A DNA stretch of 64,000 nucleotides from an uncultured virus (IMG/VR IMGVR_UViG_3300032282_004613). Its lineage: Duplodnaviria; Heunggongvirae; Uroviricota; Caudoviricetes. Location of the stretch: the IMG/VR virus record IMGVR_UViG_3300032282_004613. One strand, written 5' to 3'. Both the position numbers and the translations under genes were made by a program. Shown piece by piece: positions 56,776-64,000 of this stretch (position 1 is its first letter; each line of letters begins with the position of its first letter). The notes beneath the pieces are model-generated. The model saw only the letters and a list, made by a program, of their open reading frames with translations, was not told the DNA's origin and did no database searches.

Positions 56776-57588
56776 TTAAATAAGTGTTAAATTAATTTTT
56801 TGAGGCCCAATTAACACTTTTTCTGGGGAAGTAAAATCGTACCCAAAAAAAATATTTTCATTATAATGTATTTCCATAACTTTAAGTAAATCAGTTAATT
56901 CTAAGGTTATTTGATCATTAATATGGTGATTTTTTTCTAAAAAACTTTTTGCATACACATACACATGATTAAATAAAATACGTTCTTTTTCTGTAAGATC
57001 ATAAAAATCATCAAATAATAGTATAGAAGTTGCTTTATATGCTATAATTAAATTATCTGTATTATTAATAAAAACATCGGACTCCCGACTATCTAATTTT
57101 ATTTTTTTATCAATATCTTCAATATGGATAATTTTATAATGATAAAATTGTTCATCAAACTCTATTCTATGATTAAGGTTTTCAAAATCAGTAAATGAAA
57201 AATCATTTTTTAATGAAAGAATACCAAACGTTTGAGGTAAAAAATGTGCGTCAGGTAATTTTAAACAAATTTCTTTATAATTTTTTACATAATCAGAAAT
57301 ATTAGCAATTTTAAAATTTTCAAAATATTCTTCGTATCTATTGTCTGGATTTTTTTTTAACCAAGAATACCCTGACAGAAATCTATCGGTAGGGTTTCTG
57401 GTTAGAATATAAAATTTATTTCTTTTGAACTTATTGGCGTACTTCTGTAAGTTATAATAACCAATATGTTCATATTCAATGTTAGCCAAATCAAAAAAAT
57501 ATTTTAAAGTGGTTAACATTAAACGAGATCCGCTTCTGTGCGTTACAATAAAACCAATTTCTCTTTTGGGGAGATAGAATCCTCTCAC
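56776..57588 (-). CDS. sulfotransferase-family-2-like protein
   Basis: HRSGSR, RNPTDRFLSGY, HFLPQ. Confidence 0.7.
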   Translation of the reverse strand: MRGFYLPKREIGFIVTHRSGSRLMLTTLKYFFDLANIEYEHIGYYNLQKYANKFKRNKFYILTRNPTDRFLSGYSWLKKNPDNRYEEYFENFKIANISDYVKNYKEICLKLPDAHFLPQTFGILSLKNDFSFTDFENLNHRIEFDEQFYHYKIIHIEDIDKKIKLDSRESDVFINNTDNLIIAYKATSILLFDDFYDLTEKERILFNHVYVYAKSFLEKNHHINDQITLELTDLLKVMEIHYNENIFFGYDFTSPEKVLIGPQKINLTLI

Positions 57589-57591
57589 TAT

Positions 57592-57786
57592 TTATTTTTT
57601 TTTGTTCTTTTTTACCTCGTACGATCCACCCATATCATGGGTAACAACTGGTGATTCTTCTACTTTTTTAACACCTCTCCATTCTTCTTTGGGAACATAT
57701 TTCCATTGATTACCAGCCATTTGATTTGCTTGTTTATCATCAACTCTGATAATATTACCTGTTTTTACATTTTTTAAACATTTCAT
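57592..57786 (-). CDS. small hypothetical protein
   Basis: ORF track. Confidence 0.65.
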   Translation of the reverse strand: MKCLKNVKTGNIIRVDDKQANQMAGNQWKYVPKEEWRGVKKVEESPVVTHDMGGSYEVKKNKKK

Positions 57787-57853
57787 TTTATAAATTTTAA
57801 CTAATATAAAGAAAATTAATTTCTAATTGAATTGTTTCGATTTATTTTATTTG

Positions 57854-57927
57854 TGGACCAGGATGGGCTCGAACCATCGACTTTCACATTATGAGTGTGC
57901 TACTCTAACCAACTGAGTTACAAGTCC
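57854..57927 (-). tRNA. tRNA with CAT anticodon (Ile2 or Met)
   Basis: cloverleaf; loop CTCATAA; GGTTCGAGCC. Confidence 0.85.
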
Positions 57928-57930
57928 AGG

Positions 57931-58036
57931 TGCCGGAGGAAGGTTTGGTTACCTACACGGAGTCCATTTCGGATACTCCACCCACCTAGGAAGGGAACGT
58001 CTCAAGAGTGTACACCTCTCTTTCCGCCACTCCGGC
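57931..58036 (-). ncRNA. aberrant tRNA-Leu-like RNA (106 nt)
   Basis: perfect acceptor GCCGGAG/CTCCGGC-A; hairpin inserted in D-loop; long variable arm; non-canonical T-loop. Confidence 0.65.
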
Positions 58037-58043
58037 GTTTTCG

Positions 58044-58115
58044 TAGACCCACGTGGACTCGAACCACGAATATCTCATTAGAAGTGAGAAGTTATATCCC
58101 TTTAACTATGGATCC
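58044..58115 (-). tRNA. tRNA-Arg(TCT)
   Basis: TCTCA-CTTCTAA-TGAGA. Confidence 0.92.
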
Positions 58116-58123
58116 AATTACCG

Positions 58124-58210
58124 TGCTCCAGGCGGGAATCGAACCCGCACAAACATTTACGGTTTACGGGATTTTAAGTCCCGCGCGTCTACCAGTTCCG
58201 CCACCAGAGC
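58124..58210 (-). tRNA. tRNA-Leu(TAA)
   Basis: CGGGA-CTTAAAA-TCCCG; long variable arm. Confidence 0.95.
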
Positions 58211-58351
58211 AACTTACGAACGATGTCAAAGATCTAACTAATATATGAAATAAACCCAAAAAAACCAAAATTTTTTAAAAAATAGATTATATTGGAAAAT
58301 TTGTTTAATAATCAAGAAATATTCTTTATATTGCGTTATAAAATCTTAATT

Positions 58352-58873
58352 ATGAATCTAAGAGAAGCCACTGCAGAACTACACAGTAAAGCAGAAAAAA
58401 TGGAATTTAATCAAAAAATGTTCAGAGGTGAATTGAGTAAAAAAGAATACTTGAATTACCTTATTCAACAATCAGTTGTTTTTCAATGTATTGAAGAACA
58501 TAATTTACCACAATTAGATCCCGGATTGAAAAGATTAAAGAATGTATTCGAAGACATTCAAGAATTACAAAAAGAAGTGACAGATAAATTACCAGGATTA
58601 GAATCAACAAAAAAATATGGGATTTATTTGGAGTCATTAAAAGGTGAAAAACTTCTTGCACATGTATATTTAAATTACTTAGCATTAGTGTTTGGTGGCC
58701 AAATGATGAGATCTAAAGTTCCTGGTAGCGGTAAAATGTATCAATTTGAAAACGTACAAGAAGTTATTAAGAATGTGAGAGGGTTTCAAACAGATGATAT
58801 GGCTGAAGAAGTAAATAAAGGTTTTAATTTTATAATCGATATTTTAGATGAGTTACAAAAAAACGCTGGATAA
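58352..58873 (+). CDS. hemO: heme oxygenase
   Basis: LREATAELHSKAE, LAHVYLNYLALVFGGQ. Confidence 0.85.
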   Translation: MNLREATAELHSKAEKMEFNQKMFRGELSKKEYLNYLIQQSVVFQCIEEHNLPQLDPGLKRLKNVFEDIQELQKEVTDKLPGLESTKKYGIYLESLKGEKLLAHVYLNYLALVFGGQMMRSKVPGSGKMYQFENVQEVIKNVRGFQTDDMAEEVNKGFNFIIDILDELQKNAG

Positions 58874-59483
58874 TATTGCAAATCAATTACAAGATTTAAT
58901 AACTAATACTGCAAATGGTGTTGAGATTCCAACTGAAGATTATGGTTGGAAGAATAAAAGATATGTTGGTACTAAATTTCGTATAGCGCACGTTGAAAGA
59001 TACTCAGATAAAAATCTAGAGGTGTTACATTTTACGTGTTTTCCAGATTCATCATACCAACATCCAATTTTTGGTTTTGATATTATTACTACTGATAAGA
59101 AACCACTTGCAGCATTTTTAGATTGGTCTCCGGTTGATAATACTTTAAGTTACATATGTGTTGAAGAATTCCAAAAACCATATCCATTACCTGACTGGGC
59201 TAAAATTATTTTTTCAACAACGCCAATTGCAATTATTCCAGATGATTCTGAAATGGAAAAATTGGGTGAAGTTGTAATTGAAAGTTTTGAAGATTATTTA
59301 AGTACTTTAAATAATTCAACGCCAGCAAAAAAAAGATCGGAATATATTATTGCGGCACAAAATAGGTATTGTGAACAACAACAAAAAAATGAAAGGACGT
59401 ATAATGTATTAAAAGCAAAACTTGGTGAAGAAAAAGCCAAGTTCTTTATGTCAGAAATTTTATTTCCAAAAATTATAAATTAG
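58848..59483 (+). CDS. ferredoxin-dependent bilin reductase (PcyA/PcyX-like)
   Basis: FRIAHVE, VLHFTCFP, PIFGFDII, DWSP, LPDWA.IFS, QNRYC.QQ.KN; adjacent to heme oxygenase. Confidence 0.85.
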   Translation: MSYKKTLDNIANQLQDLITNTANGVEIPTEDYGWKNKRYVGTKFRIAHVERYSDKNLEVLHFTCFPDSSYQHPIFGFDIITTDKKPLAAFLDWSPVDNTLSYICVEEFQKPYPLPDWAKIIFSTTPIAIIPDDSEMEKLGEVVIESFEDYLSTLNNSTPAKKRSEYIIAAQNRYCEQQQKNERTYNVLKAKLGEEKAKFFMSEILFPKIIN

Positions 59484-59656
59484 AAACCTCTGTGCTTGTA
59501 AATAGGACTAGGTGCTCGATAAAAAATATCTGGCTGATATTTTCCTATCGTTGCTTTTCTTTTAAAATGATTATGGTATCTGTGATGATGTGGTTTAATT
59601 ATTATGCAACCACTTAGCGTAGCAATAATCAGTACAAAAAATATTATCTTTTTCAT
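59480..59656 (-). CDS. small His-rich lipoprotein (58 aa, not in ORF track)
   Basis: MKKIIFFVLIIATLSGC lipobox; TATTTATT upstream. Confidence 0.6.
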   Translation of the reverse strand: MKKIIFFVLIIATLSGCIIIKPHHHRYHNHFKRKATIGKYQPDIFYRAPSPIYKHRGF

Positions 59657-59672
59657 ACTAATAAATATCCTG

Positions 59673-59744
59673 TACTCGGTACGGAATTCGAATCCGTGCT
59701 ACGTCCGTGAAAGGGACGCGACCTAACCACTAGTCGAACCGAGC
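59673..59744 (-). tRNA. tRNA-Glu(TTC)
   Basis: CGTCC-CTTTCAC-GGACG. Confidence 0.93.
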
Positions 59745-59749
59745 AAGTG

Positions 59750-59835
59750 CGGAGAGAGTAGGATTCGAACCCACGGTACCTTTCAGTACTTCGGTTTTCA
59801 AGACCGACGCAATAGACCAACTCTGCCATCTCTCC
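59750..59835 (-). tRNA. tRNA-Ser(TGA)
   Basis: TCGGT-CTTGAAA-ACCGA; long variable arm; G73. Confidence 0.95.
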
Positions 59836-59840
59836 GTGTT

Positions 59841-59912
59841 TGATACTAACTCACCTTAAATTGCACCTACTGGTCATGCCATGGTTAACAAAGTCCTCGT
59901 TGAGTTAGATCA
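59841..59912 (-). ncRNA. unassigned ~72-nt RNA closed by a terminal stem
   Basis: TGATCTAACTCA pairs with TGAGTTAG(T)ATCA. Confidence 0.45.
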
Positions 59913-59920
59913 AAAAGGTT

Positions 59921-60103
59921 ACAGGTTTTTCGTACCCATTCGTACATCATAACAAATATATTTCTACACCTGTGGTTACATTTTCGTCATTGGGTTAATT
60001 ACTCCCGACTTATAGCAACTCTACTTTCACCGCTATGATACCGCGAATCAAGACGGGTGTTAAGATTTATAGACAGTGGGTTTCCACCACCGTCGTCACC
60101 TGC
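59921..60103 (-). ncRNA. unassigned ~183-nt multi-hairpin RNA
   Basis: GCAGGT/ACCTGT closing stem; internal GACGGTGG/CCACTGTC and ATAGCGG/TTGCTAT stems; no ORF. Confidence 0.5.
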
Positions 60104-60110
60104 AATTTCT

Positions 60111-60230
60111 TTACTTTCTTCTACGCTGACGTAAAGCACATCCAGCAACAGATTTATATGCTTTTGTAGTTCTTTTACTTCTTAAAGCACTACTTGCTTT
60201 TCTTGCTACTCTTCTTGACGTTCTAGCCAT
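60111..60230 (-). CDS. 39-aa Arg/Lys-rich peptide (MARTSRRVARK...)
   Basis: ATG at 60230 just after tRNA-fMet. Confidence 0.6.
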   Translation of the reverse strand: MARTSRRVARKASSALRSKRTTKAYKSVAGCALRQRRRK

Positions 60231-60245
60231 AGTTAAAAGTTTTTG

Positions 60246-60317
60246 TTGCGAGGGAAGGGATCGAACCTCCGACCTTTGGGTTATGAGCCCAACGAGCCAC
60301 CGCTGCTCTACCTCGCG
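60246..60317 (-). tRNA. initiator tRNA-fMet(CAT)
   Basis: C1:A72 mismatch; GGG/CCC anticodon stem; TATATTTG promoter at 60326-60333. Confidence 0.92.
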
Positions 60318-60374
60318 ATGTTTTGCAAATATAGAAAATATTTTTAAAATAAAAAAATATTCCAAATATTTTTG

Positions 60375-60442
60375 TTGCGGGGCCAGGAGTCGAACCTGGA
60401 ACACTCGGCTTATGAGACCGGTGGGAAACCATTCTCCCCGCA
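60375..60442 (-). tRNA. tRNA-Met(CAT) with truncated D-arm (68 nt)
   Basis: intact acceptor, anticodon and T arms; only 14 nt between acceptor and anticodon stems. Confidence 0.75.
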
Positions 60443-60445
60443 ATA

Positions 60446-60522
60446 TGGGGTGATCGACGGGATTCGAACCCGCTTTATTCTAGTGCCACAAACTAGTGCT
60501 CTACCATACGAGCATCGATCAC
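60446..60522 (-). tRNA. tRNA-His(GTG)
   Basis: CTAGT-TTGTGGC-ACTAG; C73 and encoded CCA; no encoded G-1. Confidence 0.9.
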
Positions 60523-60524
60523 AG

Positions 60525-60594
60525 AGTCAAGTATAGGAGTTGAACCTATCTTAAAGGTTTTTGCACCTTCACCTCTCCGCTCGGTCAACTTGAC
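60525..60594 (-). tRNA. tRNA-Cys(GCA)-like with abnormal anticodon loop
   Basis: GTCAAGT/ACTTGAC-T acceptor; AAGG-TGCAAAAA-CCTT. Confidence 0.6.
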
Positions 60595-60597
60595 TTG

Positions 60598-61026
60598 TTA
60601 TACCAAAAGACCATTTATTTCGTATTCCTCTTTTGTTCCAATTTTTAAAGGAACAAATAAAGCAAATCCATCATCATCCTCAAAATGGTTACATTCGTCA
60701 TCAAAAACATGTTGCCATTTTGTTCTTCTATACACAAACCGTATTCCATTCCATTTGGCGACTCTAGCGTTTCTATGGTTTCCAATATAATACTCGTCAA
60801 TAACCAAATCTTTTTTTGGTATTGCCCCAGCCGCAATTAATTTTGGAACATAGAATTCCTGCCACTCTTCTTTAGTAGTGTGTGGTAATTCTGGTATGTC
60901 CTCGGGATTAATAAATTTGGGTAATTCATTTTCCCAATAATCTTTAATCCTTTTTTGTCTTTCTTCTTTCATTCTTTTTAATTGTTCTTCCGCAATTAAT
61001 TTGAATTCTTCTTTGCTCTTTTCCAT
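60598..61026 (-). CDS. hypothetical protein inside the tRNA operon
   Basis: ORF track. Confidence 0.75.
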   Translation of the reverse strand: MEKSKEEFKLIAEEQLKRMKEERQKRIKDYWENELPKFINPEDIPELPHTTKEEWQEFYVPKLIAAGAIPKKDLVIDEYYIGNHRNARVAKWNGIRFVYRRTKWQHVFDDECNHFEDDDGFALFVPLKIGTKEEYEINGLLV

Positions 61027-61050
61027 TGTGTTTTCCTGTTATTGTTTTTG

Positions 61051-61121
61051 CACCCACTTACAGATTTGAACTGCAATCAACTGGTTTGGAATCAGGTATG
61101 CTACCGTTGCACCAAGCGGGC
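61051..61121 (-). tRNA. tRNA-Trp(CCA)
   Basis: loop TTCCAAA; G73; imperfect anticodon stem. Confidence 0.85.
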
Positions 61122-61126
61122 GTTTG

Positions 61127-61201
61127 TAGGGTAAAGAGGACTCGAACCTCCATGATGCCTTGCTCCCAAAGCAAGTGACTTAGCCATTAGTCCATTACCC
61201 T
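61127..61201 (-). tRNA. tRNA-Pro(TGG)
   Basis: CTTGC-TTTGGGA-GCAAG. Confidence 0.92.
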
Positions 61202-61209
61202 ATATGTGT

Positions 61210-61248
61210 AAAACAAAAAACCCCGAGATTTTTAAGTCCCGAGGTTTT
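61210..61248 (-). terminator. intrinsic terminator/attenuator directly upstream of tRNA-Pro
   Basis: AAAACCTCGGGA-CTTAAAAA-TCTCGGGGTTTT plus TTGTTTT. Confidence 0.8.
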
Positions 61249-61271
61249 CTAATATTTTAAGTTAAATTAAA

Positions 61272-61367
61272 TTAACCGACATCAGTATCATCGAGACATA
61301 TGGACATAGGATGCTCATTCCAATTTTGTTGGTCCATCGGCGACATCGTATGTGTTAATTGTCTCAT
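61272..61367 (-). CDS. 31-aa leader peptide MRQLTHTMSPMDQQNWNEHPMSICLDDTDVG (not in ORF track)
   Basis: translated by hand; lies between promoter TATCTTTG (61393-61400) and terminator. Confidence 0.6.
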   Translation of the reverse strand: MRQLTHTMSPMDQQNWNEHPMSICLDDTDVG

Positions 61368-61437
61368 TGAATTTTGTTTTAATCTTCTTTTGCAAAGATA
61401 ATAATAAATACTGATAAAAAGAATAAAAACTAATAAT

Positions 61438-62220
61438 TTATTCACCCCAATGTTTTTTTCTTAAATCATCCATATCAATTGGTTCGCGCTTCATGTGTCC
61501 ACCCTTAGAAAAATTTGCACCTTTTTTCAAATATCCACCTAAGAAATTCCTTCTCATTCTGTTTGAATTATTTGCTTCAGATCCATGAACACAATGAGAG
61601 TGTAAGAGTACTACTTGGCCTTTTCTAAGATAACCTTCTACTTTTCTAAAATCATGACCTTCTGGCATAACACATGGTTTACCTCTTTCGTTACTCCAAA
61701 ATGCTGGGTTGGTTTTAATTCTCTCCTCATCAACTTCAATTGGTAGTACAGGTAAACGATGAGACCCCTCATAATTCCAAACAGCACCGTTTTCTGGATC
61801 ATGATTATCTAATGCTAATGCGGTATTAATTATCTCATTATGACCACATTGAGTATAAAAAGCGTTTTGGTGTTGATCTCTACCTAATTGTCCCGGAGGT
61901 TTAAAATAGCACCAACTTTGCATCCCTTGTATTTCACCTCCCATTAAAAATTCAACGGCTTCTAAAATTTTTGGGTGTGCGAATAGTTTTTCCAGTTTAT
62001 CTGAAAGTTTATGTGGGTACGCAAATGGGTCCCACTCACCCCATATTTTACCATCTGGGGCTTCTGTTCCGGTTCTTTCATTTCTTAATCTATCTAATTC
62101 GTCGTTTATTTCATTACATTCCTCTTCTGTTAATAGTTCCAGAACCGTGAATCCTCTGTATCTCCAATCAAAGGTTATTTGTTGAACTTCTAAGTCGGTA
62201 AGATGTTTAAAATTACTCAT
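61438..62220 (-). CDS. phytanoyl-CoA-dioxygenase-family 2OG-Fe(II) oxygenase
   Basis: YFKPPG, HQN, ALD...ENG...GSH, VHGS..N...R. Confidence 0.85.
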   Translation of the reverse strand: MSNFKHLTDLEVQQITFDWRYRGFTVLELLTEEECNEINDELDRLRNERTGTEAPDGKIWGEWDPFAYPHKLSDKLEKLFAHPKILEAVEFLMGGEIQGMQSWCYFKPPGQLGRDQHQNAFYTQCGHNEIINTALALDNHDPENGAVWNYEGSHRLPVLPIEVDEERIKTNPAFWSNERGKPCVMPEGHDFRKVEGYLRKGQVVLLHSHCVHGSEANNSNRMRRNFLGGYLKKGANFSKGGHMKREPIDMDDLRKKHWGE

Positions 62221-62276
62221 ATATATATGCTTTAATACCCTAAATTAAATAAAAAAATACTTATTGTAAAGAAGAT

Positions 62277-62642
62277 ATGGGTATAATTCCGATTACCTGG
62301 TATATTGAAACGCCAATAGATTTTGAACATAAACAATATACGTTATTATCCTACCTACAGCGTGTAGACGCTAGTTTTATTGAAAAGCAACTATCTCCAC
62401 ACCTTTTACATATGGAAAACATGCTTAAAGAGTTATATGTGTTTGACGAAAAATTTCTATCAATATTAAAGGATTTTGACAGGAATAGATATAAATTCTT
62501 TAATAACCCAAAATTAGAAGGTGAAGATAATGAATTAGTTTACGAGGTAAAGGATATCGTAGATTTCTCAATCCCCCAAGTAAAAACTAGGTTAAATCTA
62601 GGTTATAAAATACTAGAAAGACATTCTCAGATTTTGTTCTAA
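62277..62642 (+). CDS. hypothetical protein
   Basis: PIDFEHKQYTLLSYLQ motif. Confidence 0.75.
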   Translation: MGIIPITWYIETPIDFEHKQYTLLSYLQRVDASFIEKQLSPHLLHMENMLKELYVFDEKFLSILKDFDRNRYKFFNNPKLEGEDNELVYEVKDIVDFSIPQVKTRLNLGYKILERHSQILF

Positions 62643-62780
62643 TAATTTTTCCGGCAATATATACGCTCTATTTGCCTTGCCCGATATTTATTTTATGGCA
62701 AGAAGAAACTAAATGTATCTCTATCATTAAAATGATGGGGCATAGGTTAGGTAAAACTTCTATATCTAAAACTTAATTTT

Positions 62781-63425
62781 ATGCAGAAAATCAAAGCAAT
62801 TTCAAGGAATATCGGTGATTACATCGTTTACGCCTTCCTATCATTAGCAATACTATTTGTTGTATGTGCACTTATCGCCCAAATCTTTTTTATCTTTTTA
62901 GAGTTTAGCGGTAGAAGTGAAACTGCGGCACAAATAGCAAGAGAGTTTAACTGGAAATTTGACGGAACCTTTAAAAATGATCCAAATAACATATTCTATA
63001 ATGCTGACGAACATGTGTATGTTGAGAGTGTTGTTAATAATGTTAAGATAGGCAAATTGGCCGGAAATAGAAATTTAGAGTTTGGGGTAAAAAACATATT
63101 AGAGGAGTTTTTACAAGACAAAGGGTATGACTTAACACCAAACGCTCCAAATAAATTAAAGGTAGAAATTATATACCTAGACGTCTTAACTACAAAAAAG
63201 AACGTGTCAGTATTTCATAAAAACGAAGAAGAAGTAGTCATAAGAATGAAAGGTATTTTATATAAGGACGGAAAAAAAGAAAAGGAAATCGTTGTTGAAG
63301 AAGGTTCCTCAGAAATCTCAATGTCAAGTTTAATTGTTGATGAAGGAGGTCAGTTTAATCAAACATCTCTAAGTAATGCAATAAAGAAAACTTGCGATAA
63401 ATTGATTCAAAAATTATTTAGTTAA
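62781..63425 (+). CDS. membrane-anchored protein, possibly CsgG-like fold
   Basis: N-terminal TM; GVKNILEEFL...AIKK pattern. Confidence 0.55.
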   Translation: MQKIKAISRNIGDYIVYAFLSLAILFVVCALIAQIFFIFLEFSGRSETAAQIAREFNWKFDGTFKNDPNNIFYNADEHVYVESVVNNVKIGKLAGNRNLEFGVKNILEEFLQDKGYDLTPNAPNKLKVEIIYLDVLTTKKNVSVFHKNEEEVVIRMKGILYKDGKKEKEIVVEEGSSEISMSSLIVDEGGQFNQTSLSNAIKKTCDKLIQKLFS

Positions 63426-63427
63426 AA

Positions 63428-64000
63428 ATGAAAAAATTATTACTGTTATGCGGTTTATTTTTATTGTGGGTATCGGGCTACTCGCAATTAAGTGTTAATC
63501 AAAGTATTGTTCAACAACCACCATATAAAGTGGGTGACACAATATCTGTAAACTACACTTTAAGTAGAGGTACAACAAATCCAAAACCTCGTTATTTTTG
63601 GTTAAGATATCAATATAACAACAAAGCGTTGGAATATGTGTCAACCACATGGTCTCAAGGATCACAAACTCAGGTGTATTACACAAACTGGAGCAATTAT
63701 GTTTTTAATGCTAATGCCGGTGTTGCTGCAACTGATTTGTATGGTCAATATATGTTAACCCCTTGGGCTTATGTTACAAACGTAGATTGGAGTGTTGGTC
63801 AATTATCAATACAAAGAGTTGATAAATCTATGGACGGTTTATTTGCAACACAAAAGTACATAATTAAAGACAAGAGTGGTTATGATAATATTCATAAATT
63901 AGATTTATCATATGCTTTAGATAGTACTGCTGGTGCAAATATTTCACCACTAACAACAACTGGTGGATCTGTAGGATTAACCCAGGTTGTAGGTAACACA
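63428..64000 (+). CDS. secreted beta-rich protein (truncated by window end)
   Basis: MKKLLLLCG..GYS-Q signal peptide; reading frame open to the window end. Confidence 0.7.
   Translation, partial: MKKLLLLCGLFLLWVSGYSQLSVNQSIVQQPPYKVGDTISVNYTLSRGTTNPKPRYFWLRYQYNNKALEYVSTTWSQGSQTQVYYTNWSNYVFNANAGVAATDLYGQYMLTPWAYVTNVDWSVGQLSIQRVDKSMDGLFATQKYIIKDKSGYDNIHKLDLSYALDSTAGANISPLTTTGGSVGLTQVVGNT

Follow-up and report, generated by a model that had tools for sequence, protein, structure and literature searches.

A candidate leader-peptide attenuator with codons that follow the tRNA genes downstream of it in an uncultured phage

Introduction

The usual view of phage tRNA genes is that they are constitutive cargo, carried to compensate for codon bias or to make up for host tRNAs that have been damaged. 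A locus of the uncultured virus IMGVR_UViG_3300032282_004613 (Caudoviricetes), studied here in a DNA stretch of 64,000 nucleotides ("the window"), raises the question of how such genes might be controlled, as an intrinsic terminator stands between a putative promoter and a cluster of tRNA genes. An earlier note, made from the letters of the window, had described on the minus strand a promoter, a 31-codon open reading frame (ORF), a terminator and then tRNA-Pro, tRNA-Trp, an ORF, a Cys-like tRNA, tRNA-His and tRNA-Met, and had proposed that the short ORF is the leader of an attenuator. This order and the coordinates hold: the TATCTTTG box, the 31-codon ORF, the 12-bp terminator hairpin with its U-run and tRNA-Pro were all located where they had been described; a CAT-anticodon tRNA after tRNA-His is called by Rfam alone. 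All window coordinates below refer to the minus strand unless stated otherwise.

The answer put forward here is that the element is probably a ribosome-mediated leader-peptide transcription attenuator gating the phage tRNA cluster, in which stalling at cognate codons would lead to antitermination and the leader would thereby read the cluster's own tRNA supply. Its anatomy has those features of an attenuator that can be checked in silico, namely a leader ORF, cognate codons, a terminator before the first tRNA and a mutually exclusive antiterminator, with the helix between the start codon and segment 2 of the ORF as the exception. The case rests on relatives of the leader, as tests confined to the window (promoter and terminator scan, box enrichment, duplex energy with p = 0.06) are weak. 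The core of the earlier proposal gains its support from these relatives, from codons that track the tRNA genes, from RNA helices and from four modules in cultured flavobacterial phages.

Relatives of the leader

A search of GenBank phages with 2 kb around the leader returned tRNA-sized matches only and no relative of the leader. Relatives, labelled here with L-numbers, were recovered from viral contigs by pattern scans for the 3' part of the leader (7 loci), for the leader ends (18 loci) and for the terminator (29 loci) and by an alignment scan with the leader peptide (18 loci), and from metagenome contigs by the terminator pattern (79 loci). Deduplication gave 69 distinct terminator-bearing stretches, from which five unrelated high-GC stretches and one with only 56 nt upstream were removed to leave 63 leaders.

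The conserved leader and terminator ahead of tRNA arrays that the earlier note had told its readers to look for are present in these 63 distinct relatives and in 6 variants with other terminators. Every one of the 63 heads a tRNA array and keeps the ORF, with frame 0 open in 63/63 and frames +1 and +2 in 0/63. The ATG-started ORFs have 31 (n=28), 32 (n=25), 33 (n=8), 36 (n=1) or 37 codons (n=1) and encode 49 distinct peptides in which only M1, S9 and W16 are invariant. The stop codon lies 22-31 nt ahead of the terminator match in all 63. A TAnnTTT[GA] box is found 8-40 nt before the ATG in 63/63, a count that is partly circular as the box was chosen by pattern, and is exactly TATCTTTG in 49; among the 62 relatives that extend far enough upstream, 46 have a TTG at 20 nt ahead of the box, and the window has none there. 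Where a tRNA was called, the first one begins 9-29 nt past the terminator match in 37/61 relatives, and in most of the others an Ala-UGC-like first tRNA was overlooked by ARAGORN. In the window, terminator and tRNA-Pro are only 9 nt apart, which leaves no room for a separate tRNA-Pro promoter downstream of the terminator.

The module can also be found without its terminator sequence. The 18 loci of the leader-ends scan lie on the same 18 contigs as terminator matches, and a scan with the 5' part of the leader gave 26 loci, of which nine were inspected (eight on new contigs and L241); a hairpin with a T-run is present in 9/9, and six of these loci are the distinct variants with other terminators. 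One of the variants, L243, has no TAnnTTT[GA] promoter box. The leader is not bound to the PhyH-type dioxygenase gene that precedes it in the window: this gene has 231 relatives in viral contigs, 80 of which were kept, and the leader is common to only L001-L004, so that the module moves independently of the gene; tRNAs follow the PhyH gene in 4/42 loci scanned.

In one-genome-per-species bacterial contigs the terminator pattern gave 10 matches, none with the leader or downstream tRNAs, and no host-borne version was found by this route. Near-identical hairpin arms, differing from the phage terminator in the loop and one base of the 3' arm, end ordinary chromosomal genes of the Flavobacteriaceae Tenacibaculum discolor (L235), Algibacter lectus (L238) and Litoribaculum gwangyangense (L239). 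These matches fit a terminator that is used by hosts of that kind.

Two further observations concern the start of the arrays. At loci with Ile-type arrays (L082, L103, L129 and others) the first ~85 nt after the terminator hold a tRNA-like gene, mostly uncalled by ARAGORN, whose anticodon loop carries UGC (Ala) and whose acceptor stem is of the G3:U70 type; its commoner variant has two mismatched acceptor pairs. In the metagenomic loci L188 and L189, 183 and 274 nt separate the terminator from the first called tRNA, each with a short ATG-started frame, and in L189 this stretch has an additional TATATTTG box.

Leader codons follow the tRNA array

As the earlier note had observed, the leader carries codons for the tRNA set of the window. 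At least one codon is present for each of the 8 anticodon species called by ARAGORN in the window, a coverage of 8/8 that random 30-codon stretches of the window's 54 long ORFs rarely reach (p = 0.0036), and codons for Lys, Phe and Tyr are absent from the leader. That leader codon content would track the tRNA set of each phage was a further expectation of the note. It was examined in downstream arrays of at most 2.4 kb, in which some tRNAs are missed by ARAGORN, with textbook wobble rules applied either strictly or liberally, the latter letting U34 read whole four-codon boxes. Over 50 instances the leaders cover 0.94 (strict) or 0.98 (liberal) of the anticodon species of their arrays, against 0.55 and 0.60 for random 30-codon stretches, with a median per-instance p of 0.009. 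When arrays are permuted among leaders coverage falls to 0.796 +/- 0.019 from 0.938 for the true pairing, a value reached by 0/5000 permutations.

The match is specific to the type of array. Pro-type arrays, headed by tRNAs for Pro, Asn, Trp, Leu-UAG, Gln and Thr, have leaders with ..TSPMNQQNWNEQPMS.. or ..NQLNW..; Ile-type arrays, headed by Ala-like, Ile, Phe, Lys, Trp, Arg-ACG, Cys and His tRNAs, have ..HTMSFIICSKWADER..; and Cys-type arrays, headed by Cys, Trp, His or Gln, Thr, Glu and Asp tRNAs, have ..TTSSTVCTTWHQECD... Pro-type leaders cover just 0.46 of Ile-type head clusters, and Ile-type leaders 0.68 of Pro-type heads.

Counted species by species in the 52 instances whose downstream sequence runs to 900 nt or more, the cell for a tRNA present in the array with its codon missing from the leader is empty for 13 of the 20 anticodon species. 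The associations are strong for CTA/CTG with Leu-UAG (10/0/1/41, p = 7e-10), GCA/GCG with Ala-UGC (18/4/1/29, p = 3e-9) and AAA/AAG with Lys (18/13/0/21, p = 5e-6), Fisher p-values that are too favourable because many instances are close relatives and are treated as independent. Better protected against shared ancestry is the evidence from codons that change place or identity. In instances with Leu-UAG arrays CTA occurs variously at codon 3, 14 or 19 of the leader, L221 with CTA at codon 5 being a possible exception for which only 479 nt downstream are covered. Codon 19 of Pro-type leaders is CAT in the window, which has tRNA-His, TGC in L153 and L194 (Cys), CGT in L157 and L213 (Arg-ACG), CTA in L083 and L085 (Leu-UAG), and CAA or AAT in others.

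The cognate codons form a block around the invariant Trp codon. Among 50 relatives the cognate fraction is 0.72-0.96 at eight of the nine codons from Trp-4 to Trp+4, with 0.56 at Trp+2, and mostly lower downstream, at 0.68 for Trp+5 and 0.06-0.54 from Trp+6 onwards. The block ends 3-4 codons before segment 2, the strand of the ORF that can form the antiterminator, which itself starts 8.3-9.3 codons past the Trp codon. With this spacing and the usual size of a ribosome footprint, a stall at the final codon of the block would bring the ribosome to the edge of segment 2 without covering it.

Alternative RNA structures

The 191-nt leader of the window folds with -49.1 kcal/mol, against -30.1 +/- 3.5 for shuffles (z = -5.46). 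The earlier note had pointed to an antiterminator between GUCUCGA in the ORF (segment 2) and UCGGGAC in the 5' arm of the terminator (segment 3), and the two are indeed complementary. This helix and the terminator were assessed on alignment A4 with 69 sequences, P1 and P3 on alignment A3. The seven antiterminator pairs are formed in 95.0% of 476 cells, even though MAFFT misaligned segment 2 in seven rows of the SNLFYN/SNLFYK type (L123, L130, L159, L175, L183, L188, L217), which were counted as unpaired cells. Two of the seven pairs change on both sides, in five cells, from A-U to G-C and from G-C to A-U. The covariation score of 0.168 compares with 0.148 +/- 0.008 and is reached by 1/500 shuffles, and partners slid by 1-3 columns pair in just 4-57% of cells. 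In the terminator 99.9% of the cells pair, and changes on both sides are seen in 11 of them (0/500 shuffles reach it). Hairpin P3, which contains the stop codon and sits in the antiterminator loop, has the best covariation of the helices: it is 90% paired, and 9 of its 13 pairs (21 cells) change on both sides (0/500 shuffles). Helix covariation, which the earlier note had called for, is seen for the antiterminator (thinly), the terminator and P3; P1 at the start codon has no such support.

The antiterminator is kept as a design even where its sequence is not. In every leader type the tail of the ORF is complementary to the 5' arm of the terminator, also where the neighbouring sequence differs. 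In the main type the complement is GUCUCGA with GGUU; it is GUCUCGAG in L109 and L184, GUCCCGAGGUU in L188 (11 contiguous pairs, -20.6 kcal/mol), GUCCCAAGGUU in L130, GUCCCGAAGUU in L159 and, in L260, GUCUCAG against CUGAGAC. The duplex of ORF tail and terminator arm beats shuffles at p <= 0.05 in 9/13 representatives.

Modules of the same design in cultured phages

Four modules of unrelated sequence have the same design, two in Cellulophaga phage phi4:1 (NC_021788, locus L270) and two in Tenacibaculum phage Gundel_1 (NC_062747, locus L271). Both phi4:1 modules lie behind a repeated TATGTTTG promoter segment. The leader of module 1, MKIQRLHLQELEQPIISGGTGV, precedes cluster 1 with tRNAs for Pro, Glu, Gln, His, Leu-UAG, Leu-UAA and Arg-ACG, and its codons 4-14 (CAA CGT TTA CAT TTA CAA GAG CTA GAA CAG CCG) are all cognate to these next seven tRNAs, CTA and TTA matching the two Leu isoacceptors. 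This coverage of 7/7 species is reached by 0/20000 random stretches, drawn from the 13 stop-free stretches of the 8-kb locus. The same leader covers 4/10 species of cluster 2 and 0/4 of cluster 3. The leader of module 2, (V)QLTKTGITVIDKTKGARAYLGDTVIG, precedes Ala, Lys, Ile, Gly, Met, Asp, Thr, Val, Arg-UCU, Met and Tyr tRNAs and covers 8/10 (strict) or 9/10 (liberal) of its own cluster and only 2/7 of cluster 1; its GTG start is our choice, the record annotating a TTG that overlaps the promoter box. A third ORF of phi4:1, the 33-aa gp076 (L270:5183-5284) before Ser, Asn, Trp and Phe tRNAs, was not counted as a module, as no clear box or terminator could be seen by eye. Its codons include two for Trp, one for Phe, one for Ser and two for Asn, and ARAGORN calls a doubtful permuted tmRNA in this region.

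In Gundel_1 the leader of module 1, MKTKLYSYSCFSSWFKNRAG, precedes Tyr-GUA-like, Trp-CCA-like, Phe, Ser-UGA, Cys-GCA-like and Ser-GCU tRNAs and covers 6/6. From the leader, Tyr, Trp and Cys were predicted for three tRNA-like genes that the record either does not annotate or lists as undetermined, and the Rfam alignments gave the anticodons GUA, CCA and GCA; the Cys-like gene, with 42.3 bits, is the one annotated as undetermined. The leader of module 2, MKTNNLHIQQNNLPVFLEGFLYM, contains a 10-nt copy of the terminator 3' arm and precedes Pro, Gln, Met, Asn and Leu-UAG tRNAs with a coverage of 5/5. Between its terminator and tRNA-Pro lies an HNH endonuclease gene (L271:2006-2512) with its own TATATTTG box, the annotated end of which overlaps the tRNA.

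The four replicate leaders fold well under shuffles, with z from -3.5 to -6.7. In all five modules, the window included, the stop codon is 23-26 nt ahead of the terminator arm. The best duplex between ORF and arm falls in the last third of the ORF in 4/4 replicates; in the window the same search prefers another site, codons 9-12 (-8.3 kcal/mol), to GUCUCGA.

These replicates bear on two other explanations. The element might be an attenuator that senses general translation capacity, through ribosome availability or the coupling of transcription and translation, with codon content not being the signal. The folding logic would require only that a ribosome reaches segment 2 in time or does not, and large parts of the leader, MRQ..HT.S and the C-terminal part, are conserved whatever the array type. 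This explanation is nevertheless unlikely, since it leaves unaccounted for a species coverage of 94-98% where random stretches give 55-60%, the codons that change with the array, and the two leaders of one phage genome, both of which match the cluster behind them and do not match the other one.

Quite unlikely, too, is a gene for a small protein or a small RNA that ends at its own terminator, with the tRNAs reached by constitutive leaky readthrough and the codon match being the codon adaptation of a highly expressed neighbour. Promoter, ORF and terminator do make a complete short transcription unit with a strongly structured RNA in which P3 covaries, and there is a sub-threshold Rfam match to the small RNA STnc180 (28.6 bits against a threshold of 50). 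Codon adaptation, however, alters synonymous choice only, and here the amino acids themselves follow the array. The 49 peptides have only three invariant residues, no peptide family was found for them, and the C-terminal coding part is swapped wholesale between leader types with the complementarity to the terminator arm retained. The modules of unrelated sequence, finally, have nothing but their design in common.

Folding with a simulated ribosome and points against attenuation

Several results weigh against an attenuator that samples the codons of its own tRNAs, and those of the folding calculations come first. In equilibrium folds of the full leader the terminator is kept at P >= 0.73 for any ribosome position in 8/10 leaders, the exceptions being L188 and, at a few positions, L124. 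The terminator dominates at equilibrium in classic attenuators as well, and any switch must, given this preference, be kinetic. Transcripts of 13 representatives were cut just before the 3' arm of the terminator and folded with a 30-nt ribosome footprint. In the cut transcripts without a ribosome the antiterminator has a probability of 0.66-1.0 in 11/13, and P1 wins in the remaining two, the window (antiterminator 0.19) and L123 (0.04). For A-site positions from codon 1 to codon 19 the antiterminator stays at 0.65-1.0 almost throughout, apart from codon 14 of the window (0.19) and codons 15-16 of L123 (0.04). A ribosome at about codons 21-31 lowers this probability to about 0-0.57 in 11/13 leaders. 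A response to simulated ribosome footprints, which the earlier note had suggested looking for, therefore appears in the cut transcripts of most leaders and at equilibrium is absent from most. The window itself is among the exceptions: besides the dip at codon 14, its antiterminator stays at 0.89-0.98 at codons 21-26 and falls only at codons 27-28 (0.38) and 31-32 (0.00-0.03). L123 is irregular, with 0.16-0.69 over codons 21-31.

The helices have weak points of their own. Covariation of the antiterminator is thin, with five cells in two pairs, and segment 3 is nearly invariant, partly because relatives were fished with its sequence. The duplex of ORF tail and arm is marginal against shuffles in the window (p = 0.06) and does not beat them at p <= 0.05 in L168 (0.09), L123 (0.15) and L151 (0.22). 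The start-codon helix P1 of the earlier note, UGAGACA with UGUCUCG, is present in the minimum-energy fold of the window; it is 86.6% paired on A3, which is no better than shuffles, is not kept in the same register in L124 and is replaced in other leader types by a start-region helix of different sequence. Within the window, a simple sigma-70 and terminator scan, uninformative here, lists neither the TATCTTTG box nor the hairpin, and TAnnTTTG is not enriched in the whole window (99 observed against 106.5 +/- 9.7 expected).

Codons and tRNAs do not match everywhere either. The arrays of L173, L204, L215 and L224 are without Ala, Ile, Phe and Lys head tRNAs over the 1.1-2.4 kb covered, and their leaders retain Phe, Ile or Lys codons (L204 is without a Phe codon). 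The leader of L175 has two Gln codons and its array no tRNA-Gln; that of L230 has CGT and its array no Arg-ACG. The Asn, Gln and Asp codons of the window leader have no matching tRNA anywhere in the 64 kb, although relatives of the window do carry Asn and Gln tRNAs. In phi4:1 the random-stretch p of module 2 is 0.05 only, with the small background of 13 stretches, and in Gundel_1 the Tyr-like and Trp-like tRNAs score 27.8 and 25.7 bits, under the Rfam threshold of 29.

The footprint calculations also bear on the sign of the switch. With the same parts, efficient translation of the leader could promote readthrough, for example if the ribosome were released ahead of the arrival of the polymerase at the terminator and the antiterminator refolded; the phage tRNAs would in that case promote their own synthesis by feed-forward. 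The naive footprint model does bring the antiterminator back to a probability of 0.68-1.0 when a ribosome is at the stop codon in L188, L130, L159, L179 and L124. We regard this version as very unlikely: the cognate block is upstream of segment 2 and not over it, a helix closing a ribosome-containing loop with only about 10 free nt is sterically improbable, and the spacing from stop codon to terminator arm shared by all five modules fits a ribosome that blocks. A further candidate was dropped. The CSKW motif of Ile-type leaders is reminiscent of TnaC, and nascent-peptide arrest of this type was rejected because the motif is absent from the Pro-type, phi4:1 and Gundel_1 leaders.

Proposed mechanism

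For the attenuator that reads its own tRNA supply, the following sequence of events is proposed. Transcription would start at the TATCTTTG box and a ribosome would load onto the 31-codon leader, which holds a block of codons decoded by the tRNAs encoded downstream. Slow decoding of any codon in this block would stall the ribosome upstream of segment 2. Segment 2 and hairpin P3 could then pair with the emerging 5' arm of the terminator, no terminator would form, and the polymerase would enter tRNA-Pro, tRNA-Trp and the later genes. With fast decoding, the stop codon, P3 and segment 2 would lie under the ribosome at the time of terminator synthesis, and transcription would end 9 nt before tRNA-Pro. 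The outcome would be a negative feedback on the supply of exactly those tRNAs, with host and phage copies combined. The sequences show the anatomy of the element and its conservation, the agreement of codons with tRNAs and the alternative pairings; that the ORF is translated and that transcription terminates at the hairpin we infer, and likewise the sign and the kinetics of the switch.

Organisation of the window locus

The features of the locus are collected in Table 1. The window is AT-rich, with a G+C content of 30-35%, and the TAnnTTTG pattern of its box is presumably the Bacteroidota promoter consensus. No Shine-Dalgarno sequence is evident by eye before the leader ORF, and no Pfam family was found for the leader peptide. 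The terminator hairpin consists of AAAACCUCGGGA (61248-61237), an 8-nt loop CUUAAAAA and UCUCGGGGUUUU (61228-61217); its 12 pairs have -14.3 to -14.7 kcal/mol, the U-run extends to 61210, and the spacer from the leader stop codon to the hairpin is 23 nt.

Table 1. Positions of the leader, its RNA segments and the neighbouring genes in the window
Feature	Coordinates	Strand	Basis or remark
PhyH-type dioxygenase gene	62220-61438	-	Pfam PF05721, E = 1e-21; precedes the TATCTTTG box
TATCTTTG box, putative -7 promoter element, pattern TAnnTTTG	61393..61400	-	read from sequence
A-rich 5' untranslated leader, 25 nt	61368..61392	-	A-rich in every row of alignment A3
Leader ORF, 31 codons and TAA, MRQLTHTMSPMDQQNWNEHPMSICLDDTDVG	61272..61367	-	ATG at 61367, TAA at 61274-61272
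Putative sensor block, codons 8-22, with invariant TGG at codon 16	61302..61346	-	codons most often cognate to downstream tRNAs
Segment 1, UCAAUGAGACA, spans start codon; can pair with segment 2 (helix P1)	61360..61370	-	minimum-energy fold
Segment 2, GUCUCGA, ORF nt 71-77, antiterminator strand	61291..61297	-	second part is GGUU at 61278-61275
Hairpin P3, contains stop codon, in antiterminator loop	61249..61285	-	covariation on A3
Segment 3, UCGGGAC, in terminator 5' arm	61236..61242	-	common to antiterminator and terminator
Intrinsic terminator, 12-bp hairpin then UUUUUUGUUUU	61210..61248	-	folding and covariation
tRNA-Pro (UGG), first array gene, 9 nt past U-run	61126..61201	-	tRNA calls
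tRNA-Trp (CCA)	61050..61121	-	tRNA calls
142-aa ORF, without Pfam family	61026-60598	-	between tRNA-Trp and Cys-like tRNA
Cys-like tRNA, shortened anticodon loop	60524-60594	-	ARAGORN, four-base anticodon 'caaa'
tRNA-His (GUG)	after Cys-like tRNA, within 60375..60594	-	tRNA calls
CAT-anticodon tRNA	60375-60442	-	Rfam only, 33.4 bits; uncalled by ARAGORN
Second TAnnTTTG box, TATATTTG	60326-60333	-	8 nt ahead of tRNA-Met (60317-60245); without leader or terminator

Two tRNA genes of the array call for comment. The Cys-like tRNA is a homologue of the tRNA-Cys(GCA) of relatives, with 51/71 positions identical to L002:4660-4731; its anticodon loop is two bases short, and it may be a decayed or unusual tRNA. 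The CAT-anticodon tRNA could be an elongator Met or an Ile2 (lysidine) tRNA; an ATA codon is present in the window leader. The second box before tRNA-Met, having neither leader nor terminator, means that not every tRNA unit of the window has an attenuator. Directly 3' of this tRNA-Met is a very basic ORF of 39 aa (MARTSRRVARKASS...) at 60111-60230 (-) without a Pfam family, and between two tRNA clusters a heme oxygenase gene (PF01126) and a ferredoxin-dependent bilin reductase gene (PF05996) adjoin at 58292-59483 (+).

Implications

If the proposed mechanism is true, a leader that samples the codons of its own tRNAs would be the first regulatory logic proposed for phage tRNA genes. It would also close a feedback loop directly, since usable tRNA would be product and signal at once. 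More tentatively, Bacteroidota phages and perhaps many others might possess modular codon-panel attenuators, with one test peptide per tRNA sub-cluster co-evolving with the gain and loss of tRNAs. Together these could act as a homeostat of decoding supply that turns on replacement tRNAs when those of the host are degraded or cut by anticodon-nuclease defences, and would be the first known cis-regulators of tRNA genes that read tRNA function. The link to anticodon-nuclease defences, already drawn in the earlier note, is a conjecture.

The conditions under which a phage depends on its tRNAs, and the reason for it, become testable in culture with two pairs, phi4:1 on Cellulophaga baltica and Gundel_1 on Tenacibaculum. 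The composition of leaders may furthermore serve as an annotation rule, marking the borders of transcription units within tRNA arrays and predicting odd tRNA identities as in the Gundel_1 example, and the element might be of use as a compact natural sensor of the capacity to decode chosen codons.

Comparison with known systems

T-box riboswitches bind uncharged tRNA directly and without translation, by means of the Stem I specifier and the T-box sequence. The element described here is similar to them as a terminator/antiterminator switch that would report the state of specific tRNAs, and differs in having a conserved ORF; no T-box covariance model is among the 16 Rfam matches with E up to 1 in 57000-64000.

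The attenuators of amino-acid operons, such as trpL, hisL, leuL and pheL of E. coli and Salmonella and the multivalent thrL and ilvGMEDA leaders, are closer in design. They too have a short ORF between the promoter and the regulated genes, an intrinsic terminator before the first of these genes, and regulatory codons a few codons upstream of a segment with two partners, so placed that a stalled ribosome would favour the antiterminator; in the thr and ilv leaders more than one amino acid is represented, as is the case here. By contrast, these attenuators control enzymes, whereas the present element would control tRNAs, the product being the sensed molecule, and their tandem runs of one codon are replaced by a panel of about 6-10 codons, with ~1-2 per tRNA of the cluster. 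The present element is also phage-borne and has a promoter context of the Bacteroidota type. A match to the Rfam family His_leader (RF00514) falls short, with 24.9 bits against a threshold of 49 (E = 0.87).

The pheST attenuator of E. coli with its pheM leader senses a single amino acid by its Phe codons and controls phenylalanyl-tRNA synthetase. Like the present element it is a leader-peptide attenuator on a component of the decoding apparatus rather than on a biosynthetic pathway, the difference being that tRNA genes are controlled here and many codons are sampled.

Full-text literature searches, with most subscription journals outside their scope, did not turn up any description of tRNA genes preceded by an attenuator or a leader peptide. 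Freshwater phages of 293-331 kb with predicted Bacteroidetes hosts have been described (PMC9723584), and the main text of that paper mentions neither terminators nor attenuation. The class of mechanism is a known one, and its proposed use on tRNA genes, by means of a codon-panel leader that follows the array, would be new.

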